DNA of 64,000 nt from Candidatus Spongiisociaceae bacterium (GTDB taxonomy: Bacteria > Actinomycetota > Acidimicrobiia > Spongiisociales > Spongiisociaceae). The notes beneath the pieces are model-generated. The model did not search any database and was not told where the DNA came from. It saw only the letters and a program-made list of their open reading frames with translations. The first letter of the stretch is position 1, and each line of letters opens with the position of its first letter. Positions 2,266 to 37,303 of the stretch are shown piece after piece. The stretch spans positions 256,001 through 320,000 of the forward strand of contig OZ253564.1 of NCBI GenBank assembly GCA_965262915.1, in the 5' to 3' direction. The position numbers were made by a program, and so were the translations under genes.

Positions 2266-2934
2266 GTCTGCCCTTCATAGCCAGCGATCATCGTCACATG
2301 TCTTCTCGACGCTGCCTTCGGTCTTCGCCCTGAGAACTGAACACGAGCGATATCGGAAACCCATGCCATAGTAGCCCCTGGGTTCAGCCTTCCTCGGCGA
2401 TATGCCACACCAGCAACGAATCGGAGGTTGCTACGAACGTGGGCCACGTTGACCGTCACCGCCTGCGAGGATCCTTGAAGTCCCCCCCTTGGTCTCGGCT
2501 TGGTCCTTCTTGGACGGCTGCGAAGTGCCAGGTCGTGGGTGGTGGAGATGTTCCCGTACGGGTGGTTGGTTGGCTCGTAGGGCTTGTTCGTTCGAGGCGA
2601 GCGGTTGCGGCCGTGCCGCTGGGGATGTCGGTCGGGGCGGTCTTGCGGGGAGGCGCTGGATCGGGTTTAGGGCAGTCCCCGGACCCGCATGGTTGGCCGG
2701 GTTTGCGTGGTGATGGGTGATCACCGGTGCTGGTGTGCTAACGGTTCGGGTTGTTGGTCGGACTCAGTTTCGGTCTGCCTAGGTCGCGTACCTGATCCCA
2801 TTCTGGATTGGAGCCTGTAGCGTGTGGAGTAGTGTCAGGCACGGGTTTGGGGTGGAACACCACGGGATCCGAGACCGAGAAGGGTTGGGCCGGGGGGCGA
2901 TTCTGGTCCGTGTGGGTAGCAGCGAGAGTGTGAG

Positions 2935-5900
2935 GTGGTTGTGCCGCTGGAGGGGTGGGCTGGCCCGGTTGGCGATCTGGGTCGTTATGTCTCGGAGGAG
3001 TCAGGCCGTTCGCTTGAGGGTTATAGCGTCCAGCCGAATTGGGTTGATGAGCATGCCAACGAGGAGCAGGATACGGCGCGGGGTGGTTACCAGAGTCGGC
3101 AACTGTTTGAGTTGGTTCAGAACAGCGCTGATGCGCTTTGGGCGGACGCGGGGGCTGGAGTTCGTGACCCTGCGTCGTTGGGGGTTTCTGGGCGTATCGG
3201 GGTGCGTCTGACAGCACAGTATTTGTATTGCGCTGATAACGGTGACCCGATCGACGCCGATGGTGTGAAGGCTCTGATGTTCTCTCGGCTGTCGCCGAAG
3301 CGGGGAACGGACCAGATCGGTACGTTCGGTGTCGGGTTCAAGGCTGTTCTTGGTGTTAGTGACTCACCGGAGTTCTTCAGCCGATCGGGCTCGTTCCGCT
3401 TTGATCGTGCCAGTTCGCAGGAGCGGATCAGAACGGTTGTCCCTGGTGCTACACGCTGTCCGGTGCTGCGGCTGCCGGAGCCGATCGATCCTGGCGACTA
3501 TTGGGAACAGGACGGTGTGCTGTCTGATCTGATGGGGTGGGCGGTGAACATTGTGCGGTTACCGCTCCGGTGTGGAGCCCGGGAGGATCTCCGCAGGCAG
3601 ATGGAGAAGTTCCCCGCGGAGTTCCTTCTGTTCGTGGCGCATGTCGGGTCGCTGACACTGACCGACGATTCCGGCTCGGTTGACCGTGTCCTGGAGTTGG
3701 AGAGCGTTGGCGATAGCTATCTGCTCGCCGAGGGTGATACGTCCAGCGAGTGGAGACTTTTCGAACGTGCCCACCGGCTGGGCAAAGACGCCTTTGCTGA
3801 CCGGCGTCCCGGCGACGAACGGGAGTCGGTTCCCCTCTGGTGGGCTGCACCGGTGGACCGGCTTCACCGGCGTGGTAGGTTCTGGGCGTTCTTTCCGACC
3901 CACACCGATAGCCTTGTCCCGGGAATCCTCAACGCTCCTTGGAAAACCAACGAGGACCGTCAGAATCTTCTCCCGGGTCCTTACAACGACGAGTTGATCG
4001 CCGCGTCCGCAGAGCTGATAGCTGACAAGTTGCTCCTGATAAGAACTGTGGAGGATCCCGCACGTCACTTGGACGTGCTGCCACGCGGTGAGGAGTGGCG
4101 TGACTCCCGTCACGAGAAGATGCTTCGAAAGCGAATACATGCGGTTCTGCACGGGCGACGGGTGGTCCCAGATCAGAGCGGCACACTCCGCCGCGTTGGG
4201 GATATTTCCTACCCGCCAGAGGTGCTGACTCCACGTGATGGGCTCGTTGCGGAGCCGCTCGAGCGGTGGGCGGCCTATGAGGGACGACCGAACGGCTGGC
4301 TGCATCACAAAGCGCTAAGCCGGACTAGGCGAGCGGCTGTCGACCGCCTGTTCCGTGCCCCTCACCAACCGGCTTCGAGGGTCTCACGGGCGCCAAGAGC
4401 GTCGCTCGCCACCTGGCTCGAAGCCCTCGTCAGCGAGGCTGGACGGGGAGACGCAGTCGCCGCGTCGATGGCGGCGATCCACACCGCGGCGTGCATCCCG
4501 GACACCATTCGAATACGCGCCGATCTCGGTAGGATTGTGTTGACAGAGTCCGGTCGCTGGCGCACACCAGATCCGCTATCGGTGTTCCTCCCGCTTGAGT
4601 CTTCGGGTGTCGTCGAGGCCGCCGATCCGGACTCGACGGTCAACTCGGAGTTGATAGCAGACCGGGAGACCCTTAGGGCGTTGCAGGCGCTGGGCCTCAG
4701 GCCACCTTCGCCCAAAGCGCGGTTCCGGGCTATCGCAAAGCGTGCACTCCGCAGCTTGTCTCGAAATGCCGACCTCCACACCGAGTTCTGGAAGGCATCC
4801 CGCGCTGTCGATCCGATCGACGCCGCAAAGGCGATCCGGGAACACTATTGGTGGCGCGACGCCGTGCGTGTCCGGACCCGAGCTGGCGGATGGCAGCAGC
4901 TTCGGGCCGTTCTGATGCCCGGTGGCATTGTTCCTGGCGACGGAACCCGCGACAACGAAGTGACCGTCGATTGCGAGTTCCATGACCTCGACAGGGAGCT
5001 ACTCAGCGCCGTCGGGGTGACCAGTACGCCCGTCGAAGGATACGACAAGGGACTGGAGAGGTCCCCGTTCAAGCAGTACGAGAAGCTGAGCGAGAAGAAG
5101 TACAGGCGCCGTACCGATCTGCCAGCTTGCCCGAGACGCGGCTACTTGGAGTTCACAAGCTACAACAACATCGGGCCATTGATGATCCTTCGGGACCTGT
5201 CTGAGGAGGGTGCTGCCGCCTATACAGATGCTTTGCTGAGTTTGGATGCCTGCTATCAGCCGTGGGTGATGTGGCATACAGGCACCAACCGCTGGCACTA
5301 CCCGGAATCTGCGTGCGAGTCACTCCCGATCTGGTACCTCCGCAGCTTCGGACAGATCCAGACACCCACGGGAATTGTGGCGTTGAGCGACGCGTTCGGA
5401 CCGCACCCCGCGAGCCCCGCAGCTCTAAACGCCTTGTTGCAGCATCGGAACGCCGACAAGATCAAGGCGGCTTTCGATCTGTCCGATCCAGCACCCGAGC
5501 TGTTCGGCGAAGGGCACCCGACCCTGCTGGTCGATGTCTGGCCCGGGCTACGCGAGTACCTGTCCCCGCATCGTAGGAACGCTCAACTGGTTCCATGCGA
5601 GCGAATCCTCGTCGGCGGGGACGATCGACCCTGTGCCTTCCATACGCCCGACATTTACCTCGTTGGAAACGTCGATGACGACGAACGCGGCGCTCTCGAA
5701 CTCGTTACCCAAGAACTGGATCTCAGGCTGGGATACGTTGAGATCGAGGCGATCCTGAACCGTCGTACTCCAGCCGAAGTCGAAGAGAGACGCACCGCGG
5801 TTAGGCAGCACCCAACCCATGCCGGGCGCCTAGTTGCGGCGGTGGGCGAACAGGCCCTTCGTTCCGGTCTGCCTCGATCACTTCTGGACGTTCTGGAAGA

Positions 5901-17071: not shown

Positions 17072-18370
17072 GTGGAAGCTGATCCTACGCGCATGTGCGA
17101 GAAGTTGGTAGGCCTAGGTGAGGTTGATCTGGTAGGGATCAACGACCCGGGCGAGGAGGCACCGTTGGAGGTGGTGATCCGGTCCCGCAAGCCCCGGCCG
17201 TTGTGTGAGTCCTGTGGCGGGTCGGTGTGGTCGAAGGGCTATCGGAGCGTGGTGTTGGTGGATTTACCGGCGTTCGGCCGGCCTGTGCGGCTGCGGTGGC
17301 GGAAACGGCGCTGGACATGTCCGAACCCGGACTGTGCGCTCAGATCGTTCATCGAACAAGACCCCAAGATTGGTCCCCAACGGGCGTTGTTGACATCCCG
17401 AGCGGCCCGGTGGGTGACCATCCAGGTGGGTGGGCGGGGCCGTTCGGTCGACGAGGTCGCCGCAGAACTTGGTTGTGATTGGCATACGGTGAACAAAGAG
17501 GTTGGCTGCTGGGGCGAAGCGCTGCTGGAAGCAGACACCGATCGGGTCGGGACCGTCGAAGCTGTGGGAGTGGACGAGACGTTGTTCTGGCGTCGGGGCC
17601 GTTGGCGTACCAAAGTCTGGTGCACCTCTGTCGTCGACGTTGGCGGCCACCAGCTGATCGACATAGTCCCTGGTAGAACAGCAGAAAGCGCCGCAGCCTG
17701 GTTCCGGTCACAACCCACCGAATGGTGTGAGGCTATCCGCTGGGCGGTGTTGGACATGTCCGGTTCGTATCGGAAGGCGTATGACAGGGTGCTACCGCAC
17801 GCGCTGCAGGTAGCGGACCCGTTCCACGTCATACGCCTCGCCAACCAGCGACTCGACGAGGTACGACGAAGAGTCCAAAACGAAACCCTCGGGCATCGAG
17901 GCCGCAAGGACGACCCGCTGTATCGGATACGCCGCCTCCTAACCGCCGCGCATGAGAGGATCAGCGACCGCGGTCAAACACGGCTGCGTGGTCTCCTCGA
18001 TGCTGGTGACCCCTACGGGGAAGTGCGCACAGCCTGGCACGCGAAAGAGACGGTACGAGGCATCTACGGGATCGAGAGTCCGGTCCTTGCTCTCCGATAC
18101 ACCCTCCAGCTCGCAGACGACCTCCAACACGAATCCTGCCCACCCGAGATCAACAAGCTAGGTCGCACCATCGCCCGCTGGACCCCCCAGATCACCAACT
18201 GGCACATCTCGAAGGTAACCAACGGACCCACCGAAGCCCTCAACAACCTCATCAAACGGATCAAACGAGCAGCGTTCGGGTTCCGCAACTTCGCGAACTA
18301 CCGAATCCGGGCCCTTCTCTACGCGGGGAAACCCAACTGGGACCTACTCCCATCGGTCACTCCCCACTGA
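17072..18370 (+). CDS. ISL3-family transposase
   Basis: Zn-finger Cys pairs, GVDET, LDMS, DPFHV, TNGPTEALNN, GFRN. Confidence 0.95.
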   Translation: MEADPTRMCEKLVGLGEVDLVGINDPGEEAPLEVVIRSRKPRPLCESCGGSVWSKGYRSVVLVDLPAFGRPVRLRWRKRRWTCPNPDCALRSFIEQDPKIGPQRALLTSRAARWVTIQVGGRGRSVDEVAAELGCDWHTVNKEVGCWGEALLEADTDRVGTVEAVGVDETLFWRRGRWRTKVWCTSVVDVGGHQLIDIVPGRTAESAAAWFRSQPTEWCEAIRWAVLDMSGSYRKAYDRVLPHALQVADPFHVIRLANQRLDEVRRRVQNETLGHRGRKDDPLYRIRRLLTAAHERISDRGQTRLRGLLDAGDPYGEVRTAWHAKETVRGIYGIESPVLALRYTLQLADDLQHESCPPEINKLGRTIARWTPQITNWHISKVTNGPTEALNNLIKRIKRAAFGFRNFANYRIRALLYAGKPNWDLLPSVTPH

Positions 18371-18389
18371 AATCCACTCATACTTAGAA

Positions 18390-18565
18390 GGTTCCTGGGC
18401 TGGGACGGGTCTGACCCAACTGAAATCTGGCTTTGTGCCTTTTCATCGATCTGTCGGCCTGTTCCCAGCTTGGGGGTGTAACCCCCTGGGCCGGGGCGGA
18501 TGTGACCTTATAGGAGCTTTGATCTTCCTCCACCGTGAGTGGCCTGTCCACCGCTTGCCGGGTCC
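18390..18565 (+). ncRNA. Predicted bridge RNA of IS110 A1
   Basis: Target loop ACTGAAATC (18419-18427) and TCATCGAT (18443-18450); donor loop ATAGGAGC (18510-18517) and TGAGTGG (18536-18542) match the flanks and own ends; RNA ends approximate. Confidence 0.8.
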
Positions 18566-18607
18566 GGGGATCGGAAATGATTCTATCCCGCAGAGGAGGA
18601 AGGTGTC

Positions 18608-19837
18608 ATGGGAGAAGATGGTCGGGTTGTGTTCGGTGGGGTTGACACCCATCGTGATACCCATGTTGCGGCGGTGGTTGATGGCGCCGGTCGGGTCCTG
18701 GGAACGGCACCGTTCGGGGCTGATCCGGTCGGATATGAGCAGATGACCAGGTGGTCCGGAACCCACGGGCACCTGCTCCGGGTAGGAGTGGAGGGCACCG
18801 GCAGCTACGGCGCCGGCCTAGCCCGCTATCTGATGGCGGCGGGCATCGAGGTGGTAGAAGTGAACCGGCCGAACCGGCAGCTACGCCGCCAGCGGGGCGG
18901 CAAGACCGACAGTGTCGACGCCGAGGCGGCAGCTCGGGCAGCGGCCTCGGGGCAAGCTACCGCAGTTCCCAAATCTGGTGACGGACCGGTTGAGTGCATA
19001 CGGATGTTGTTGATGGCCCGCCGCTCGGCTACCAAGGCCCGCACCCAGGCCGCTAACCAGATACATTCTGTGACCGTTACCGCACCTGAGCCGCTAAAAC
19101 GCCAGCTCAGAGGTCTCAAGCTCAAGGCTCGGGTTCGGGTCTGTGCCCGCTGGCGTCCCGGTGAAGCACAGACCACAGCCGCGTACGCGAAGATGGCTCT
19201 ACGCTACCTGGCCCGCCGATACCAATCCCTCGACACAGAAATCGCAGAACTCAAGATCGAGATCCGTCGCCTCTGCGCCGAGGCTAACCCGGCTCTGTTA
19301 GCCGCCACCGGTGTGGGCCCTGACAGCGCTGCTGCGCTGCTAGTCGCTGCCGGCGACAACCCCGGGCGGATGAAATCGGAACGGTCCTTCGCTGCGCTCT
19401 GCGGCGCCAGCCCCGTCCAGGCATCATCGGGACAGACCATCCGGCACCGTCTCAACCGGGGCGGCAACCGCCAAGCCAACAGCGCACTCTGGCGGATCGC
19501 TACCACCCGGATACGCCACGACGCTGCCACCAAAGAATACGTGGCACGGCGCCAAGGGGAAGGAAAGAACCGAAAAGAGATCATCCGCTGCCTCAAGCGG
19601 CACATCGCCCGAGAGGTCTACCGCCTCTTGACCAACCCGCCACCAACCCCGAACTGCGCCCGGCTCCGCCGCCGACGTCAACACGCCAACATCACCGTCA
19701 CCCAGGCCGCCCAACAGCTCGGAACCCACCCCAGCCGCATCTCCGCACTCGAACGCGGCCGAGACCACAACCACCAACTCGCCAGCCGATACCAGACCTG
19801 GCTCCTAACCCACCAACCGGCCCCATCACCGACTTGA
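18608..19837 (+). CDS. IS110 DEDD recombinase with C-terminal XRE-like HTH
   Basis: GVDTH, GVEGTG, KTDSVDA, SSG, RLNRGGNRQAN; tail ITVTQAAQQLGTHPSRISALERG. Confidence 0.93.
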   Translation: MGEDGRVVFGGVDTHRDTHVAAVVDGAGRVLGTAPFGADPVGYEQMTRWSGTHGHLLRVGVEGTGSYGAGLARYLMAAGIEVVEVNRPNRQLRRQRGGKTDSVDAEAAARAAASGQATAVPKSGDGPVECIRMLLMARRSATKARTQAANQIHSVTVTAPEPLKRQLRGLKLKARVRVCARWRPGEAQTTAAYAKMALRYLARRYQSLDTEIAELKIEIRRLCAEANPALLAATGVGPDSAAALLVAAGDNPGRMKSERSFAALCGASPVQASSGQTIRHRLNRGGNRQANSALWRIATTRIRHDAATKEYVARRQGEGKNRKEIIRCLKRHIAREVYRLLTNPPPTPNCARLRRRRQHANITVTQAAQQLGTHPSRISALERGRDHNHQLASRYQTWLLTHQPAPSPT

Positions 19838-19861
19838 CAACCATAGGAGCATCGATGAGCC

Positions 19862-20595
19862 CTCAAAGCTCGGGTCAAGATCTGCGCGCGGTTCCGACCC
19901 GGCACAGACCACACCACCACCGCCCACGCGAAGGGTGCTCTGCGGCACCTGGTCCGCAGATACCAGACGCTCACTGCTGAGATCACCGAACTCGACACAC
20001 AGATCACAGATCTCTGCGCGAAAGCGAACCCGGCGCTTTTGGCAGCTCGCGGGGTCGGCCCTGACACAGCAGCGGCTCTCCTCGTGGCGGCAGGCGACAA
20101 CCCCCAGCGCATGAACTCAGCCACAGCCTTCGCTGCCCTAATGTGGTTCCAGCCCCGTCCCCGCATCATCGGGGAGAACAGTCCGGCATCGTCTCAACCG
20201 GGGAGGCAACCGCAAAACCAACAACGCTCTGTGGCCGATGCGCTACCACCCGGATACACAACGACGCCCGCACCCAAGCCTATGTAGCCAAACGAGAAGC
20301 GAAGGCAAGAACCGTAAAGAGATCATCCGCTGCCTCAAGTGGCACATCGCCCGAGAAGTCTACCGGCTGCTGCCCAACCCGCCCCCAACCCCGAACTGCG
20401 CCCGCCTACACGCCCGCCGCCGGGCAAGCCAACATCACTATCACCCAGGCCGCCCAACACCTCGGAACCCGCCCGGCCCGTATCTCAGAACTCGAACTCG
20501 GACGCAACCACAACCACCAGCTAGCAACCCAATACCAGAACTGGCTCCGCACCCGCCAACCGGCCCCGTCCCCGATTTGACAACCATAGGAGCAT
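19862..20595 (+). pseudogene. Degenerate IS110 clade A copy A3 (3' half, frameshifted), interrupted by the ISL3 at 16951
   Basis: Coding sequence continues from 16927-16950 (LKGLNLKA/RVKICAR); right end TTGACAACCATAGGAGCAT again followed by CGATGAGCC (20596-20604). Confidence 0.85.
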
Positions 20596-21128
20596 CGATG
20601 AGCCCCATTAGTTACACTGGCCAGAGTTAGCGTTCTCATAAACAGCTATCTACCTGGGATAACAGGAAAACGGGCCCACAACTGTCGGTAAATGGGGATT
20701 ACAAACTTGTCTAGTCAAGTATGTAATCCCCTTCCTTTGCTCAGTCGTTCCGTCGGGTGTGTTCGACCAGACCTGCCGCGAATGAGCCTTCGGCGGCGGC
20801 GTCGGGGCCTGCCGACATTCGGCTGCTCGTGGACATACTCGGATACACCACCCCAGAAGAAGTAGAGGAAACCACCACATCCGTCTTCGGGAACGAACCC
20901 CTACCAGAAGGCTGCGTAGCCACCATCGCAACCCTGTTGACGTGACAGCACGCCCAGCATCCCGCGGTGCTCACAGTCGCGCTCCGGAACAGCTTGACAG
21001 CACCGAATGGTGGCCGGGGCCCCCGGTAGTGGCTCTGGACCGTGGTCGGGTTGCGGGCGGCGGCGTTGCGTGTGTACCAGTTGGGTGGAGTTCCCTGATA
21101 GGCCTAGGCGTTTGGCGCCTGTCCGGCT

Positions 21129-30454: not shown

Positions 30455-30543
30455 GGAGGGATGGCCGAGCGGACGAAGGCGTCGGTCTTGAAAACCGATG
30501 GGCCCGGTAACGGGTCTCGTGGGTTCGAATCCCACTCCCTCCG
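30455..30543 (+). tRNA. tRNA-Ser(TGA)
   Basis: GGAGGGA/TCCCTCC stem, TCGGT-CTTGAAA-ACCGA anticodon arm, T-loop. Confidence 0.97.
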
Positions 30544-31321
30544 CCTATAATTGTACATTGTGCCTGGTAAAGGGCTAGATAGTCCTTCTGGTTATCACTT
30601 TTGCTGTACTTCGGTGTTCTTGCTATGCCTTTATGGGCGATCGGGTCGAGCCGGCGCGGCGTTCGGTAGGTAGTTGCGTGCGGTAACAACGACGACACCC
30701 CGATTGGGTTGAGCAGTGCAGCTATGCGTGGGGTGCCCGGCTGGGCCGGTCGAAGTCGTGGGCGGATACTAGCGGGCTTGGCCGGTTCCCAGACGACTGC
30801 TTCTGTTGCAAGGGGGAGTTGAACGAACGCTCGGACGCAACCGGGCTCCACAAGCGGCTGGTGGTATGGCAGTGGAGTCCGTTCTTGTGGTGTACCGGGG
30901 GGGCGGCGACTCCGAAGCCGGTTACATGCGTCGGTGGGGAGGCTTTCCGGGAAGGTCTGTGCCGTAGGGGGGAGGGAGGCCTGTGGGAGAAGAGCTGGGC
31001 GTCACTCTGTCGTCGAGCGGAGCATAGTGAAGGTGGGAACCGATGCGGGGTTGTCCACTCCCGCTGTGCCGAACCGTTCCGGGAAACCCGGAACGGTTCA
31101 TGGACGCCCATTAGACACACTCATACTGAAGGTGCCCTGTTTTGAGGGGGGCTGCTGCGATGATGAGGAGTGTTCCCCTGTGACCGGGGGGCGGGTCTGA
31201 CCCGACTAGACACCGGCACTTGTGTTGCCTTGCTGGGGATCTGTCGGCCTGTCCCCCGGTCAGGGGCGGGGTTCGGCTTCGAAGCGGATGTGACGTGATA
31301 GACACCCCAGGAGCGTAAATG

Positions 31322-32542
31322 TCAAGCTGCGGCTCGGTCGAGCATGGTTCGGTGTGCCCAGGCGGTGTGTTCGTCGTAGGGGGTTCGGTGTTTGAGGCAG
31401 CCGTGGAGGATGCCGACGAGCCGGTTGGCGAGGGCTCGTAGTGCTTGGTGGTGGAGGTCGCCGGCTGCTTTTCGTTGGTCGTAGAAGGCTCGCGCTCCTG
31501 GACTGTTGTTGAGGGAACAGAATGCCCATTGGTCGAGAGCGTCGTAGAGTCGCCGGTTGCGGACCTGGCGGGCAACGACGGCGTGTTTGCGGCCTGATGC
31601 GATGGTGACGGGCGACGTGCCGGCGTAGTTTCTGCGAGACTTGGCGCTGGTGTAGCGGTGGGGGTCATCCCCGAACTCACCGAGCGCCCGGGCGCCGAGC
31701 ACGGTACCGAGTCCTGGCTGGGAGTGGTAGATGACGGCGTCCGGGTGTTCTTCAAAATGGGTCTCGAGGGTTTCTTCGAGGTCGGCGATCTGGCGGTTGG
31801 TTTCCGCGATGATCTTGACCAGCGAAGCAACGATCGTCCCGAAGGCGTCCGCGACCGGCCCGGGTGCGGTGAGGTGGGCACCTCTGAGGCCTTTCTGTAT
31901 GCGGTGGGCAACCTTGTCGAGGTTGCGTTTCCGTCCGCCTCTCTGTACCGCTGCTCTGATCTGGGGAAGTGTCAGGCGGGCGCCCCGGGTGGGGGTGGGT
32001 GCCCGACCGAGTATGGCTAGGGCGTCGCGATGGGCCAGGTCATCGAACGTTTCCAGGGCTGCAGGGTAGTACTCGCGCAGCGCGTTGCGCATCTGGTTGG
32101 TGTGGCGGGTCCGCGCCCAGATCAGGTTCTGATGGGCACGGGCCATGATCTTGATGCCGTCCGCGTCTGGGCTGTCCCCGGCTACCGGACGGTGGTTGTG
32201 ACGGTCGGTTCGTACCAGATCGGCTAACACCTTGGCGTCTCCTCGGTCTGATTTGGCTCCACCCTGGCGGTGACGGTCCCGGTAACGGGAAACTGCCATC
32301 GGGTTGATCGCATACACCTGATAACCCGCCCCGACCAGAGCACCGACCCACAGACCACGGTCGGTCTCGATCCCTACCACCACCTCGGCCGCATCCGATG
32401 CGTGTTTGGCGACCATCTCGTGCAAGCGGGCCACACCCGCCAGGCCCTCCGGTAGACGGGAGAACCCCAGGCGGGCTCCCTCCTCGTCCAGCAGATACAC
32501 ATCGTGATGTCCCTCAGCCCAGTCGTTACCCACAAAGATCAT
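31322..32542 (-). CDS. IS110 recombinase, clade B
   Basis: GNDWA, GIETD, KSDRGDA, ASG. Confidence 0.95.
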   Translation of the reverse strand: MIFVGNDWAEGHHDVYLLDEEGARLGFSRLPEGLAGVARLHEMVAKHASDAAEVVVGIETDRGLWVGALVGAGYQVYAINPMAVSRYRDRHRQGGAKSDRGDAKVLADLVRTDRHNHRPVAGDSPDADGIKIMARAHQNLIWARTRHTNQMRNALREYYPAALETFDDLAHRDALAILGRAPTPTRGARLTLPQIRAAVQRGGRKRNLDKVAHRIQKGLRGAHLTAPGPVADAFGTIVASLVKIIAETNRQIADLEETLETHFEEHPDAVIYHSQPGLGTVLGARALGEFGDDPHRYTSAKSRRNYAGTSPVTIASGRKHAVVARQVRNRRLYDALDQWAFCSLNNSPGARAFYDQRKAAGDLHHQALRALANRLVGILHGCLKHRTPYDEHTAWAHRTMLDRAAA

Positions 32543-32589
32543 CCTTCGCCCCTTCCTTGCGCGGGTCCACTCTCTGCTGAGCTGTGGAG

Positions 32590-32770
32590 AACGCCTGGCG
32601 GCGACCTAGCAGATCAGTGCTCTGTGGCACGCCACCCCCTCAGCGCTACAAGCAGCCCTCACTCACCGGCCGGGGCACGATCTATCAGCAGGAATCAACG
32701 TTCCAGGAGCCTGGAGTACTCACCGGCCAGCCAGCTCAACCACCACACCCTCCCAGAAACACCGGCAGAA
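32590..32770 (-). ncRNA. Predicted bridge RNA of B1
   Basis: Minus-strand guides AGGCTCCT (32705-32712) and TGATAG (32682-32687) match the insertion site AGGCTCCTATCA; RNA ends approximate. Confidence 0.75.
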
Positions 32771-32882
32771 GTGGTGGACCCCCATTAGGAGCCTTGTGGA
32801 AGGTCCGCACCGTGAGTGTACTGTCCGCCGCTTCTTGCCAGGAACCCGTTTTGGTAAACGGTAGTCCACGGGGAGGTGGTTC

Positions 32883-34112
32883 ATGTCGGAGGATCGGGTT
32901 GATGTTTTCGGTGGGGTTGACACCCATCGGGACACGCATGTCGCGGCGGTGGTCGATGGCGTCGGTCGGGTGGTCGGCTCCGAGCCGTTCGGGGCCGACC
33001 ACACCGGATATAGGCGGATGGCGGCGTGGATGCAAGCGAAGGGGCAGCTGGTCCGAGTCGGGGTGGAAGGAACGGGTAGCTACGGCGCGGGGCTCGCCCG
33101 TTACCTGACCGAGGCGAACATCGAGGTGGTCGAGGTCATGCGTCCCAACCGGCAACTACGCCGCCGGAAGGGCGGCAAGACCGACAGCGTCGACGCCGAG
33201 GCGGCAGCCCGGGCGGCCGCCTCAGGTGAAGCAACCGCAGTTCCCAAATCCGGTGTGGGACCGGTCGAGTGTCTCCGGATGCTGCTGGCCGCCCGCCGCT
33301 CCGCGACCAAGGCCCGCACCCAGGCCGCCAACCAGATCCACGCCCTGGTGGTCACCGCCCCAGAGCCGATAAGACACCAACTGGCGGGCAAGAAACTCAG
33401 AGCACAGGTCAAGGTGTGCGCCCGCTGGCGTCCCGGCGAAGCACAGACCACCGTCGCGTACGCGAAAAGGGCGCTGCGCCACCTGGCCCGCCGATACCAG
33501 ACCCTCGAGGTCGAGATCACACAACTCAAGCGCGAGATCAGAGGTCTATGCGCCCAGGCCAACCCGGCGCTGCTGGGCGCCCCAGGCGTCGGCCCTGACA
33601 CAGCCGCCGCGCTGCTGGTCGCTGCCGGCGACAACCACGGGCGAATGAAATCGGAAAGGTCGTTCGCAGCGTTATGCGGATCCAGCCCCGTGCAGGCATC
33701 ATCAGGCCAGACAGTGCGGCATCGTCTCAACCGGGGAGGCAACCGCAAAGCCAACAACGCTCTGTGGCGGATAGCCACCACCCGGATACACAACGATGCC
33801 CGCACCCAAGCCTATGTAGCCAAACGAGAAACCGAAGGCAAGAACCGCAAAGAGATCATCCGCTGCCTCAAGCGGCACATCGCCCGAGAAATCTACCGGC
33901 TCATCACCAACCCGCCCCCAACCCCGGACTACACCCGCCTGCGCGCCCTACGCCAACAAGGAGGCATCACCATCACCCAGGCCGCCGAAGAACTCCGAAC
34001 CCGCCCGGCCCGTATCTCAGAACTAGAACTCGGCCGCAACCACAACCACCAGCTAGCAACCCAATACCAGAGGTGGCTCCGAACCCGCCAACCGGCCCCG
34101 TCCCCGATTTGA
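32883..34112 (+). CDS. IS110 recombinase, clade A, with C-terminal HTH
   Basis: Same motifs as 18608-19837; same 409 aa length. Confidence 0.93.
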   Translation: MSEDRVDVFGGVDTHRDTHVAAVVDGVGRVVGSEPFGADHTGYRRMAAWMQAKGQLVRVGVEGTGSYGAGLARYLTEANIEVVEVMRPNRQLRRRKGGKTDSVDAEAAARAAASGEATAVPKSGVGPVECLRMLLAARRSATKARTQAANQIHALVVTAPEPIRHQLAGKKLRAQVKVCARWRPGEAQTTVAYAKRALRHLARRYQTLEVEITQLKREIRGLCAQANPALLGAPGVGPDTAAALLVAAGDNHGRMKSERSFAALCGSSPVQASSGQTVRHRLNRGGNRKANNALWRIATTRIHNDARTQAYVAKRETEGKNRKEIIRCLKRHIAREIYRLITNPPPTPDYTRLRALRQQGGITITQAAEELRTRPARISELELGRNHNHQLATQYQRWLRTRQPAPSPI

Positions 34113-34127
34113 CAACCATAGGAGCAT

Positions 34128-35608
34128 CCCCAGGCGCGTAATTGTCAAGCTGCGGCTTGGTTGATGGTGGTTCGGTGTGCCCAGGCGGTGTGTTCGTTGT
34201 GGGGGGTTTGGTGTTTGAGGCAGCCGTGGAGGATGCCTACGAGTCGGTTGGCTAGGGCTCGTAGTGCTTGGTGGTGGAGGTCGCCTGCTGCTCGTTTCTG
34301 GTCGTAGAAGGCTCGGGCTCCTGGGCTTGGGGTTAGGGAACAGAACGCCCATTGGTCCAGGGCGTTGGGGAGACGCCGCTTTTCGGACGTGGCGGGCGAC
34401 GACGGCGTGTTTGCGGCCTGACGCGATGGTGATGGGCGACGTTCCGGCGTAGTTTCTGCGAGACTTGGCGCTGGTGTAACGGTGGGGGTCGAACCTCGAA
34501 CTCACCGAGCGCCCGGGCGCCGAGCACAGTACCGAGTCCTGGCTGGGAGAGGTAGATCACGGCGTCCGGGTGCTGCTCAAAACGGGTCTGGAGGGTCGCT
34601 TCGAGTTCGGTGATCTGGCGGTTGGTTTCCACAATGATCCTCACCAATGACGCGACCGTCGCCCCGTAGGCGTCCTCGACCCGCCCAGCTGCTCTGAGAT
34701 GGGCGCCTCGTAAACCCGCTTGGATACGGCGGGCGGTCGCATCGAGGTTGCGTTGCCGTCCACCTCTTTTGAGCGCAGCCCGGATCTGGGTGATGGTCAG
34801 GCGGGCCCCTGTGCTGGGGGTGGGTGCCCGACCCAACACGGCTAGGATGTCGCGATCTGCCAGGTCCCCGAAGGTTTCAAGGGCTGCCGGATAGTATTCA
34901 CGTAGCGCGTTGCGGACCCCGTTGGTGTGGCGCACCCGAGCCCAGATCAGGTTCTGATGCGCTCGTGCTGTGATCTTGATGCCTTCCGCCCCGGGGCTGT
35001 CGCCAGCCACTGGACGATGATTGTGACGGTCGGTGCGTACCAGATCCGCTAACACCTTGGCGTCCCCGCGGTCGGACTTGGCTCCGCCCAGGCTGTGACG
35101 GTCCCGGTAACGGGACACCGCCACCGGATTGATTGCATACACCCGATAGCCGGCTGCGACCAGCGCGGCGACCCAAAGGCCGCGATCGGTTTCGATCCCT
35201 ACCACCACCTCTCCAGCATCCGATACGTGCTTGGCGACCATCTCATGCAACCTGGCTACACCTTCCAGGCCTTCTGGTAGACGCCGGGCAGCAAGTTTGG
35301 TTCCACCCTCGTCCATCAGACACACATCGTGATGTGCCTCAGCCCAGTCATCTCCCACAAAGATCATCCCTTATCCTCCCTTGCTCGGGCCTGCTCTTGC
35401 TGAGCTGTGGAGGAAACGCCTGGCGGCGACCTAGCAGATCAGTGCTCTGTGGCACGCCACCCCCTCAGCGCTACAAGCGGCCTCACCAACCGGCCGGGGT
35501 ACGATCTATGTTCAGGAATCAGCGTTCCAGGAGCATTCGGTACTCACCGGCCGGCAGCTCAACCACCACACCCTCCCAGAAACACCAGAAGAAGTGGTGG
35601 ACCCACAT
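34128..35608 (-). mobile_element. IS110 clade B, copy B2; recombinase 34145-35367 frameshifted near 34490
   Basis: Homologous to B1; left junction CCCACATTAGGAGCAT; last bases of its right end stranded at 31115-31117. Confidence 0.88.
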
Positions 35609-36086
35609 TAGGAGCATCCGGGGCGGTTCATTCATGTGAGGTGGTCTGCGTTGCCCAGGGTCGAGGCCGCCATCGCCTAGGCTCGGCCCTACCGGGACTG
35701 CGGGTTTCGGGTCCGGCATCCAGTACTACCCATGGGCGTTCGCGATGGCGCAAAACGCCAGGTCAAAGGGAAGCGTGCGCGGAATCATGCGCGCATGGGT
35801 CGAAACGCGCACGCCCCGCGGCTGCGTTTGGGTCTGCATTGACCGAGCAGGCGTTCGGCGGCCTTGTCGAATCCAAAGGGAGGTCACTTTTTGAAACAGC
35901 GGGGCGGGGGCGGCAAGGCAAATGATATCTCACCTTGAACAATACTTTGTTTAATTACGTATTTGTAATTACAAAAATGTATGGTTGCGCACAGAAGATA
36001 GTCTCGACTAAACTCTAGCCCAAAGAGATCGGAGACTTGACATATCCTGATACCTGTGCTATTAGAAGGAGAGGAGGTGCCCGCCG

Positions 36087-36329
36087 ATGTCGGAAAAATC
36101 AGAAGCACATCGTAATTACGAAGTTTTCGCCAGACTGTTGCCTGACTTGGCGGAGACCCATGCTGATAAGTGCGCTCTGTTGCACGATGGTGAGTTGGTC
36201 GAGATTTTTGATACCAACGCTGATGCACGATTTGCAGGGAGGACACGATTCGGCAGAGGTAAATTCTCGGTACAACGGATAACTGCTCGTCCGGCTGACC
36301 TGGGATGGTTCTCCCATGTATCGGCATAG
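36087..36329 (+). CDS. Small hypothetical protein (DUF5678-like) paired with an aspartyl protease
   Basis: GAGGAGG RBS; LLPDLAETHADKCALLHDGELV; overlaps next gene. Confidence 0.6.
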   Translation: MSEKSEAHRNYEVFARLLPDLAETHADKCALLHDGELVEIFDTNADARFAGRTRFGRGKFSVQRITARPADLGWFSHVSA

Positions 36330-36726: not shown

Positions 36727-37105
36727 GTCTTCGTCTGACCCTAGGTCTAATTCGCGACGTAGTTCCCTGCGACTTGGCCCGAGCCCAGGGGAGCAACCCA
36801 GCAACAGTTGGGCGAGCGGATGGGCATCTCTCCCCAGGCAGTCCATCACTACTGGACATCCCGGTAGCACCCAGCCTGTTGCCCTGCTGGGTGGCTCTGA
36901 TGTGTGATGATCGGAACTGGTTGTTCACCTGGGGTCGGCAGCGCTCAGCCAGCCTATTACTGAGATAGCCCCCTGTGGGGTGTGATATCATCGCGGTGGT
37001 TGGATGCCAGCAGACCGCCTAGTCTTCCGATGACGATTCTGCTCACCGCCACCGACTTTCCAACCGCAGACTGTGACCGTTGATAAGCGGCTCTTCGGAA
37101 ATGAG

Positions 37106-37303
37106 ATGCTTCTATGTGTCTATCAGGTCACATCCGCTTCGAAGCCGAACCCCGCCCCGGACCGGGGGACAGGCCGACAGATCCCCAGCAAGGCAACACA
37201 CGCGCCGGTGTCTAGTCGGGTCAGACCCGCCCCCCGGTCACAGGGGACCACCCCGATCATCGCAGCAGCCCCCAAGAAAACAGGGCACCCTCCAGTATGA
37301 GTG
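37106..37303 (-). mobile_element. 198-bp transposase-less clade A IS110 derivative next to a 17-bp ISL3 IRL stub (37089-37105)
   Basis: Reverse complement of 31118-31305, then TAGAAGCAT (right-end-like). Confidence 0.8.

Follow-up and report, generated by a model that had tools for sequence, protein, structure and literature searches.

Why should one bridge-RNA element lie exactly inside the donor guide of another, and could its own programme have brought it there? This question is raised by a window of 64,000 nucleotides from a Candidatus Spongiisociaceae bacterium (the whole stretch of DNA analysed here), in which an element of clade B, termed B1, interrupts an element of clade A, termed A2. 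Bridge RNAs are under development as genome-writing tools, and little is known about the targets for which they are programmed in nature. We consider it highly probable that B1 was directed by its own target loop into the left donor guide (LDG) of A2, with a CT core as the insertion point and a guide that mirrors the end of its own element as the landing site.

The pairing rules used below are those described for IS621. In the target loop and the donor loop alike, the left guide (LTG or LDG, respectively) pairs to the bottom strand of the left half-site and is therefore read like the top strand, whereas the right guide (RTG or RDG) pairs to the top strand of the right half-site. Handshake bases located 3' of each right guide bind the opposite partner once the strands have been exchanged (Hiraizumi 2024, PMC11208158).

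Clade A elements and their predicted guides

A1, A2 and B1 are IS110-family elements, each with a DEDD recombinase and a predicted 5' bridge RNA. The Pfam domains PF01548 (DEDD_Tnp_IS110) and PF02371 (Transposase_20) score above the cut-offs in all three proteins, and the recombinases, B1's included, match the structure chains of the IS621 and ISCro4 recombinases; that of A2 is related to the solved IS621 recombinase 8wt6 (E 7.8e-11). Both clades have the layout of the IS110 group, that is, a long non-coding left end (about 230–280 nt in A, about 245 nt in B), a short right end 15–20 nt past the stop codon, no terminal inverted repeats, and a short core at both junctions (CT for B; C, or NC, for A). 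The ends of A2 were set by aligning about 20 other A copies in differing flanks. The clade A features are as follows.

18376–19852, + strand: A1, intact clade A reference copy, within the terminal repeat of an ISL3-family element
18510–18517 and 19843–19850, + strand: the two copies of ATAGGAGC in A1, as LDG in the 5' non-coding region and in the right end, respectively
31119–34127, + strand: A2, with B1 inside it; ends ACTCATACTG... (left) and ...CAACCATAGGAGCAT (right); both junctions have one base in common, the C at 31118 and 34128
31190–31250, + strand: target-binding loop of A2, intact; LTG ACUAGACAC at 31205–31213, RTG GCUGGGGAU at 31232–31240
31284–31301, + strand: donor-binding loop of A2, 5' half; basal stem GCGGAUGUGAC, linker GUG, then ATAG, the first half of the LDG (31298–31301)
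32789–32831, + strand: donor-binding loop of A2, 3' half; GAGC, the second half of the LDG (32789–32792), and inner hairpin CCUUGUGGAAGG
32812–32820, + strand: RDG of A2 with handshake bases, GUGAGUGUA
32821–32831, + strand: 3' strand of the basal stem of the donor loop, CUGUCCGCCGC
32883–34112, + strand: recombinase ORF of A2, 409 aa, open, with both IS110 domains and a C-terminal helix-turn-helix
34118–34127, + strand: right end of A2, ATAGGAGCAT, the DNA copy of the motif
37105–37303, − strand: A2', a truncated A2-like copy in which left end and target loop are present and the donor loop extends as far as CCTGATAG; ACAC and then the right-end fragment ATAGAAGCATC come next

The first loop of clade A reads its surroundings closely. 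The LTG equals the element's own left flank at 8–9 of 9 positions in all 13 copies, with the flanks of other clades fitting worse. The RTG is the antisense of the right flank; the AU that comes after it is constant and agrees with the AT of the right end. In the second internal loop, ATAGGAGC forms the 5' side, which is the position held by the LTG in the first loop, and it copies the right end; we thus read it as the LDG. The first base of the motif covaries with the right end, with agreement in 33 of 33 intact elements (29 A/A, 4 G/G), which bears out the claim of a sequence-only reading of this DNA that the donor loop copies the element's own right end. That reading had also taken TGAGTG for the right donor guide, and the RDG is indeed antisense to the left end ACTCA(T), extended by 2–4 bases that differ between copies along with the left flank; in A2, the RDG read as its reverse complement fits the left junction, these flank bases included.

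The consensus fold of the clade A target loop runs stem, loop, hairpin, loop, stem. The second loop has its basal stem in four of four single-sequence folds, and its inner hairpin is weak and variable; consensus folding yields both loops in B and the first loop only in A. With these folds and guide positions, the left ends of both clades are predicted to encode bridge RNAs with two guide loops. No bridge-RNA family was found in the window at the Rfam gathering score, at which the hits were an SRP RNA, three tRNAs and two Ms_AS-4. The two Ms_AS-4 matches fall inside B1 and B2.

The 8-mer ATAGGAGC is unchanged even in relatives whose recombinase is about 50% identical (L050–L058). It is not rare in this genome, with 116 occurrences found and about 109 expected from composition; what stands out is where it is found, namely at one and the same position of 32 A-type loops and, as CATAGGAGCAT, in 32 right ends.

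B1 and the guides of clade B

The boundaries of B1 were derived from 11 full B copies in differing flanks, and two B copies elsewhere are 99% identical to it. B1 comprises the following features.

31302–32788, − strand: B1, 1487 bp including one copy of the CT core; right end at 31302, left end at 32786; CT core (AG on the + strand) at 31300–31301 and 32787–32788
31322–32542, − strand: recombinase ORF of B1, 406 aa, open; DEDD_Tnp_IS110 4.4e-35, Transposase_20 2.5e-9
32543–32786, − strand: predicted bridge RNA region of B1, with 5' hairpin, target-binding loop and donor-binding loop
32705–32713 and 32682–32690 (+ strand coordinates of the complement): LTG CAGGCUCCU and RTG UGCUGAUAG of B1

A consensus fold of nine B copies (−85 kcal/mol) runs stem, LTG, hairpin, RTG, stem, with both guides in one internal loop. 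The target loop of B1 reads AGGCUCCU and UGAUAG and fits the A2 site at 8/9 + 6/8 positions. Across three B subgroups (11 copies) the guides change with the flanks, own-group scores being highest and cross-group scores lower. The guides of B2, a second clade B element in the window, fit the right end of A at 8/9 + 6/8, and the B2alt comparison scores 8/9 + 3/8 by eye. In the group found in heptamer repeats, guides and sites agree at 5–7/9 + 7/8, with single-base switches (C/U and CUAG) that track the flank, and at locus L047 the host GAGCTTTG is paired with the B guide AAGCUCCU.

On the donor side, the guide version CAUGGGGUGG / CCAUUAG fits the ends of B. The right donor guide of B1 itself is a variant, CUGCUAG, which fits its left end CT-AATGG poorly, and B1 may itself be dependent on other copies.

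B1 inside the donor guide of A2

B1 splits the LDG of A2 as ATAG/GAGC and places TGAGTG (32813–32818) 1.5 kb away from the ATAG half. All positions given in the sequence-only reading for these motifs agree with the DNA, as does its observation that the guide is split while the recombinase ORF stays intact: an element of 1487 bp lies between the two halves, and the 409-aa frame is open. When B1 is removed in silico, the loop becomes GACGTGATAG/GAGCCTTG, which aligns with GACCTTATAGGAGCTTTG of A1 and with the same loop of 10 other A copies.

In the mechanism that we propose, the target loop of B1 would be set for AAGGCTC-CT-ATCA, which on the A strand is TGAT-AG-GAGCCTT, namely the clade A LDG with two flanking bases on each side. 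Guided by this loop, the B1 recombinase would insert the B1 circle at the CT core of the A2 donor-binding loop, and the result would be a half-loop of A2, together with its target loop, lying 1.5 kb from the right donor guide, the closing stem and the recombinase gene. Since the guide of A must mirror its own right end, the 8-mer occurs twice in every A element and is conserved, and a conserved, duplicated 8-mer offers clade B a multi-copy, host-neutral landing site. The B1-type lineage would read the copy in the RNA gene, and the sister B2-type lineage the copy in the right end. The motif had been described as a target that occurs twice per element, and it is a target both times, with B1-type guides fitting the loop copy, B2-type guides fitting the right-end copy, and a B element lying in an A right end in a relative (L063).

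According to Durrant 2024 (PMC11208160), bridge RNAs act in trans and are driven by a promoter that is restored at the circle junction. The corresponding promoter of clade A would consist of a TTGACA −35 box 13 nt from the tip of the right end (34109–34114 in A2) and CATACT or CATAAT at the left end, with a 17-nt spacer across the junction. A transcript started on a circle would therefore run through B1 before the remainder of A2. We infer that A2 can no longer make its own working bridge RNA and can move only with donor loop and recombinase from other A copies; the earlier expectation that the insertion should kill the RNA of A2 in cis is reasonable and partly supported.

The suggestion that this target is hard to escape holds in one part and fails in another. 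The 8-mer itself is frozen, even at about 50% recombinase identity. However, the guides of B1 read about 12–14 nt, four of which lie outside the 8-mer and are free of the right-end constraint, and none of the 25 loops that differ there is hit. A compensatory guide and end variant had been proposed at TAGAAGC (37108–37114, − strand), but these bases are part of the right-end fragment ACATAGAAGCATC... joined to the truncated copy A2', and this fragment is identical over 31 nt to positions 523813–523843 of the genome. The variant AUAGAAGC was found in none of the 32 A-type loops of the genome.

Recurrence of B elements in A loops

In this genome, the B junction, at which the loop sequence runs on into the ACAC that opens the B right end, is present in 5 of 7 TGATAG loops and in 0 of 25 others, which carry TAATAG, TTATAG, TCATAG or TTGTAG. 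Two perfect 12-mer sites, A542 and A545, are unoccupied, A542 being an intact TGATAGGAGCCT loop. The 14-mer junction TGATAGACACCCCA occurs 11 times in six of eight genomes of the genus (0 for the reversed control pattern), and 10 of the 11 lie in A-type donor loops. At least seven different hosts or flanks are represented among these 11 hits, along with B sequences that differ; the counts are inflated by copies related by descent, as G005b and G006 share a flank. The same configuration is found at L047, L048, L061 and L062 on named contigs. Some of these loci cannot be counted separately from the genus hits, because L061 and L062 share regions with the genus hits L019 and L013, and L047 lies on contig G002:C2. 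The recurrence in related bacteria indicates, at the level of sequence, that these elements home in on each other.

Some copies may have moved together. A3640::B1b and A4420::B1c are sister composites, each in a proper target site of its own. Their hosts share 14 differences from A542, and the composites differ from each other at 16 of 1464 positions in the host part and 11 of 1487 in the B part, so that both probably stem from one B insertion. If this composite moved as a unit, then an interrupted A is not immobile, which suggests that it may still be moved with help in trans.

Probable reciprocal targeting around A2

The surroundings of A2 contain a second clade B element, which is a sister lineage to B1 with guides set for the same motif at the right end of A.

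34128–35615, − strand: B2, about 84% identical to B1; truncated ORF of 344 aa with no Transposase_20 match; guides AUGCUCCU / AACAUAG

The first four bases of the right end of B2 (ACAC) stand at 31115–31118, on the other side of A2. A2 is lodged within a right end of clade B, which agrees with the prediction from the guides of A2. The reverse arrangement, B2 inserted in the right end of A2 with an odd right end longer by 3 nt (GAGCATCCCCAGG), was considered and rejected, because the flanks of A2 rebuild the standard B right-end junction and fit the guides of A2. Moreover, the clean junction of B in an A right end in the relative L063 has the form CATAG/ACACCCCAGG, and the guides of B2 fit a right end of the A963 type, whose usual right flank CCGGGGCGGTTCA adjoins the right side of B2. 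The region to the left of A2 was also considered as a B-like element. TGGACGCCCATTAG matches the B left end there at 13 of 14 positions, but blastn finds no further similarity to B, and the ORFs left of A2 have no Pfam match.

A2-type elements have guides that match the B right end, and they split the B left-donor sequence. A third IS110 element, C, hits the RDG of A in G002 and two MAGs; in this genome C is represented by one weak match of 99 nt only, and it plays no part in the window. We tentatively propose, at somewhat below even chances, a network of mutual RNA-guided targeting among bridge-RNA elements in sponge-associated Acidimicrobiia, in which target loops are set to the parts that other lineages cannot easily change, that is, donor guides and mirrored ends. 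Its members would be the B1 type, which splits the LDG of A; the B2 type, which splits the right end of A; C, which splits the RDG of A; and the A2 type, which splits the left-donor sequence of B.

RNA, circle and empty-site evidence

Twenty sequencing runs are listed as containing the stretch or part of it, two of them recorded as RNA, and contigs of X19, X20, X17 and X1 were compared with 30500–35700. The contigs of the two RNA libraries give no cover of the 5' region and ORF of A2, and thin cover, with many differences, of B-type ORF sequence. One contig from the RNA libraries, of depth 20.8, connects 31261 with 32807 and has an A715-like target loop at its loose end, so its source is an uninterrupted relative. 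No joint of A right end and A left end is listed among the contigs of X19, X20, X17 and X1. As to the empty site, the flanks 30560–31112 and 35616–36300 are adjacent in none of the eight genus genomes. In G001 the left flank belongs to a repeated element, and in G002 it continues into what, from its motif, we take to be the start of a group II intron reverse transcriptase.

Alternative explanations

The strongest alternative is that clade B merely uses a safe harbour, landing in the loop or right end of A because the sequence is conserved, multi-copy and without cost to the host, while the link between guide and end has no special role and no conflict exists. The largest B subgroup in this genome (seven full copies) is found in CAGGTG(C/T) heptamer arrays and not in A, clade A itself has the terminal repeat of the ISL3 element as its commonest site, and IS110/IS1111 members in the reference list of PMC11208160 target REP sequences, Tn21 ends and attC sites. 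Against this, three IS110 lineages or sublineages hit donor-recognition parts of A (LDG, right end and RDG), and A2-type elements are programmed for the B right end; such a mutual pattern is more than a neutral harbour predicts. We regard this explanation as rather unlikely, although whether the B hit is antagonism aimed at A or simply the use of a safe multi-copy site cannot be told from sequence.

Much less probable is a single old accident, in which B entered an A loop by chance and the composite was then copied by the machinery of A, so that recurrence would reflect descent. The two sister composites and the flank shared by G005b and G006 are of the kind expected in this case. Yet the B guides match their site and change with it across subgroups and hosts, the hosts are A lineages of about 72% identity that differ in target loops and flanks, and occupancy tracks two linker bases that are read by the RTG of B. 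Least credible of all is that ATAGGAGC is no RNA guide but a subterminal DNA repeat to which the recombinase binds, like those of the IS1111 group, so that B1 would split a protein-binding site: the motif is a direct copy of the A end and its invariance over deep divergence is unusual for a freely programmable guide, but it repeats the end directly rather than inverted, changes with that end in the GTAG lineage, sits in a loop arm that matches the LTG of the first loop with the same UGAC-NNN lead-in and CUGUC closing stem, and faces a guide antisense to the left end whose handshake bases track the left flank.

Significance and comparison with known systems

Under the preferred reading, guide-programmed insertion of B1 into the LDG of A2, one element is programmed for the guide of another, and precisely for the segment that must be identical to a second site in the same element. 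A self-referential guide of this kind would create a conserved, duplicated landing pad, and the programme of natural target loops would shift by small changes from one related site to another (loop copy, end copy, heptamer repeats). IS110 elements could thereby disable, or ride on, one another, which makes the arrangement a candidate for a natural check on how far an insertion sequence can spread through its genome. It also provides guides already paired with their targets in nature, on which rules of specificity can be examined, for example the weight of flanking bases and the choice of handshake bases. If the wider targeting network is real, it would represent a natural arms race or hyperparasitism with programmable recombination guides, in which a lineage could use the common 8-mer to switch from the copy in the RNA gene to that in the DNA end, or back.

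Full-text literature searches returned no published report of a guide-programmed insertion of one IS110 element into the guide of another; the supplementary target tables of Durrant 2024 or of a 2026 preprint (bioRxiv 10.64898/2026.08.14.744561) could list such cases. Expanded and tandem IS110 loci, presented in that preprint along with half-matched donor arms, share with the present locus repeated insertion into occupied loci and the lack of target immunity. There the outcome is tandem growth and cargo capture, whereas here one IS110 lineage inserts by guide into the guide loop of another. An IS110-family element is likewise known that homes to, and interrupts, a conserved stretch of a few bases with a function in a different mobile element; in that case the target is a DNA end bound by a DDE transposase, whereas here it is an RNA guide and targeting runs in both directions.

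A close comparison is with IS621 and the IS110 elements as described in PMC11208160 and PMC11208158. Like these, the elements studied here have a recombinase with DEDD and Tnp domains, an RNA in the long left end, two loops each arranged as stem, guide, hairpin, guide, stem, left guides in top-strand sense and right guides antisense, handshake bases, a CT core (in B) and a junction promoter. Clade A differs in that the base common to its junctions is a single C (or NC) rather than CT and in its C-terminal helix-turn-helix. A further difference is that the natural target here is the donor-guide segment in the bridge RNA gene of another element, or the end that this segment copies.

Elements of the window and the split guide

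The genome that holds the window (5.06 Mb, one contig) is rich in IS110-family elements, and its closest named relatives among public contigs are Acidimicrobiia MAGs, several of them sponge-derived. Three elements of the window, of clades A and B, encode recombinases that are distant kin of the solved IS621 and ISCro4 recombinases.

18376-19852: A1, clade A; recombinase with two IS110 domains
31119-34127: A2, clade A; recombinase with two IS110 domains
31302-32788, minus strand: B1, clade B; recombinase with two IS110 domains
17072-18375 and 19853-19861: ISL3-family element around A1; about 18 other sites of A copies in the genome belong to this set

The observation that B1 splits the donor guide of A2 is confirmed, and all of its coordinates agree with the window sequence. 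In A1 the motif ATAGGAGC is present at both 18510-18517 and 19843-19850. In A2 a complete 1487-bp B element lies between ATAG (31298-31301) and GAGC (32789-32792), the right guide TGAGTG stands at 32813-32818, and the recombinase ORF (409 aa) is uninterrupted.

Several remnants lie nearby. A1-type and 81%-type A copies are nearly all found in the ISL3-family terminal repeat, about 9 bp from the tip, with left flank ACTGAAATC and right flank CGATGAGCC or CGAAGAGCC; an apparently uninterrupted ISL3 end, CACTGAAATCCGATGAGCC, occurs near genome position 4176831. Just past the ISL3 end right of A1, a truncated A-type copy (19862-20605) corresponds to A1 positions 762-1503 at ~78% identity, so that the ISL3 element itself lies inside an older A element. 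The stretch 30560-31069, between a tRNA gene (30455-30543) and A2, is single-copy here and repeated in G001, one of eight genomes of the genus. It is probably the truncated 5' part of a group II intron, because in G002, another of these genomes, it is followed by the apparent beginning of a reverse transcriptase of the group II intron type. On the minus strand at 37105-37303, a truncated A2-like copy ends in CCTGATAG plus ACAC and abuts a fragment of a right end, ACATAGAAGCATCTCATTTCCGAAGAGCC, which has a second site at genome 523813-523843.

The clade A bridge RNA

The ends of clade A were set from ~20 copies with differing flanks, and alignment of the 5' regions of 12 copies revealed two homologous modules (guide arms in parentheses): GGGUCUGAC-NNN-(9 nt)-hairpin-(about 6 nt)GAU-CUGUCGG and GCGGAUGUGAC-NNN-(AUAGGAGC)-hairpin-(GUGAGUGnn)-CUGUCC. 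In 13/13 A copies, the 9-mer of module 1 agrees at 8-9 of 9 positions with the left flank of its own element, and it fits the flanks of other clades less well; the 3' arm of this module reads antisense to the right flank. In module 2, the 5' arm equals the A right end, and the 3' arm reads antisense to ACTCA, the left end, and to 2-4 further bases that track the left flank. Single-sequence folds recovered the second loop's closing stem in 4/4 cases, around a short and variable inner hairpin.

The proposal that ATAGGAGC is the left donor guide, copying the right end, is borne out both by its position in the module-2 5' arm and by covariation with the end: across the window's genome and the named MAG contigs, the first base of the guide is that of the right end in 33/33 intact elements (29 A/A, 4 G/G). 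The G/G elements are mutually related, and they therefore probably record one evolutionary change.

Clade B guides and the insertion in A2

The flanks divide the 11 full B copies into three groups. Their core is CT (AG on the window's plus strand). The fold of their 5' RNA shows a 5' hairpin plus two internal loops, both arms of the first loop covarying with the flanks.

Table. Clade B groups, target-loop arms and sites (slash, insertion junction)
B1, B1b, B1c (99% alike): all at TGATAG/GAGCCTT within an A donor loop; arms CAGGCUCCU and UGAUAG; site AAGGCTC-CT-ATCA; match 8/9 + 6/8
Heptamer group, seven copies: in CAGGTG(C/T) heptamer arrays; arms GGCACC and GUG(C/U)CAG; match 5-7/9 + 7/8
B2: adjoins the right end of A2; arms AAUGCUCCU and AACAUAG; site A right end; match 8/9 + 6/8

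Guide/site scores between groups are lower than within them. The single heptamer-group copy with flank AGCAC has the arm GUGCUAG, and at L047, a locus in a relative, the host loop GAGCTTTG is paired with the B guide AAGCUCCU. It is well supported that the insertion of B1 into the A left donor guide was RNA-guided by B1's own loop.

Two versions of the B donor loop, CUCAUGGGGUGG..CCAUUAGG and CUGAGGGGGUGG..CUGCUAGG, interchange among 99% identical copies. In B1 (32590-32650, minus-strand RNA) both arms are of the second version, the right arm misfits the B left end CT-AATGG, and the differences among B1, B1b and B1c are concentrated in the equivalent region. Within the recombinase genes of B1 and B2, but on the non-coding (plus) strand, the Rfam family Ms_AS-4 (Actinobacteria sRNA) scores 83.7 bits at 31640-31721 and 72.2 bits at 34464-34546; these matches are a conserved stretch of this transposase clade in antisense.

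Recurrence and escape

By pattern search, the window's genome has 32 A donor loops. ACAC, with which the B right end begins, follows 5/7 TGATAG loops and 0/25 others (TAATAG 16, TTATAG 6, TCATAG 1, TTGTAG 2), counts that are not a clean statistic as the copies share descent. The 14-mer junction occurs 11 times in 6/8 genus genomes (reversed control, 0). A-type loops hold ten of these junctions, with at least seven different left flanks or target loops by eye, and the B junction sequences also vary. Four loci among named contigs (L047, L048, L061, L062) have the same configuration; they are not all additional to the genus counts, since L061 and L062 share regions with the genus hits L019 and L013, and L047 is on contig G002:C2.

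The idea that this target is hard to escape holds in part. The 8-mer is frozen: it is unchanged in relatives of other orders at ~50% recombinase identity (L050-L058), a depth of conservation that fits a locked guide/end pair. However, B1's guides also cover TG before ATAG and CT after GAGC, positions free to vary, as the motif in the A right end is preceded by CC, AC or TC and followed by AT. Loops with other bases at these extra positions carry no insertion in the window's genome. A GTAG-variant loop in G007 (L066) is nonetheless followed by ACAC. The suggested compensatory end/guide variant at 37108-37114 did not hold up, being a G-to-A right-end variant whose matching guide occurs in 0/32 loops.

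The motif occurs twice per element, as noted, and two B lineages read this one 8-mer in its two contexts, because B1-type guides fit the loop copy, B2-type guides fit the right-end copy AACATAG/GAGCAT, and at L063 (G002) a B element lies cleanly in an A right end (junction AAACATAG/ACACCCCAGG). The two target loops differ by a few bases per arm. At L017 (G001:C180), a B element whose guides are B2-like is bordered by an A donor loop (CCTGATAG/ACAC) and, at its other end, by GAGCATCCGCGGCGGTTCA, the flank right of B2 in the window; recombination between the loop B and the right-end B of one A element would leave this arrangement.

Probable consequences for A2

B1 leaves the A2 ORF open. On one side of it stand the target loop and half of the split guide, on the other side the right guide, the stem that closes the loop, and the recombinase gene. 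Clade A has a putative circle-junction promoter (right-end TTGACA, 17-nt spacer, left-end CATACT or CATAAT), of the kind whose rebuilding at the circle junction is described in PMC11208160. Transcription from the A2 junction would need to cross 1.5 kb of antisense B1; since the guide halves are also separated, loss of A2's own bridge RNA is a sound inference from the sequence. Bridge RNAs function in trans (PMC11208160), and the ends are identical across all A copies. The sister composites A3640::B1b and A4420::B1c (A copies carrying B) occupy two different proper target sites and differ at 16/1464 host and 11/1487 B positions, which fits a single hit followed by movement of the composite. These functional and evolutionary readings of B1 in A2 are plausible.

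Reciprocal targeting

The flanks of A2, TTAGACA-C and C-CCCAGG (31111-31118 with 34128-34140), rejoin as TAGACACCCCAGG, a 13-mer found five times in the genome, four of them at B right ends. Because they rebuild a B junction and match A2's own guides (ACUAGACAC 8/9, GCUGGGGAU 8/9), A2 is placed within B2's right end, where it splits B's left-donor sequence. The junction ACAC/ACTCA recurs at genome 341691 (region 341679-341702) and twice in G007 (L066, L068); A2-type elements are programmed for, and inserted in, the B right-end junction TAG/ACA-C/CCCAGG. One G007 case is a three-level nest of A loop, B remnant and A2-type element.

A third IS110 lineage, C (357 aa), occupies A's right donor guide in G002 and two MAGs and is absent from the window's genome.

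L065 (G002:C2:3127500-3136000), 2687-4060, minus strand: element C, core TC; also at L037, L044 and L063

It interrupts an A963-type bridge RNA at the right donor guide (CCCTGA/.../GAGTGTTTTGTCC), a site matched by its own loop guide GAACACUC, and a B element additionally occupies the right end of the C-bearing A copy at L065. Downstream of the match at L046, an A-type left end interrupts another A's right end (GATTTGACAACC/ACTCATACTGG); the inserted element has the target guide CAUUGACAAAC, and this is clade A targeting clade A.

Comparison with known systems

An IS110 element programmed against the guide loop of another was not found in full-text literature searches. Known IS110-family targets include REP, Tn21 ends and attC (PMC11208160), and tandem growth of IS110 loci has been described (bioRxiv 10.64898/2026.08.14.744561). 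The clade A guide layout is the one published for IS621, whose left guides bind the bottom strand and whose right guides bind the top strand; once strands have been exchanged, the handshake bases on the 3' side of the right guides base-pair with the partner DNA (PMC11208158).
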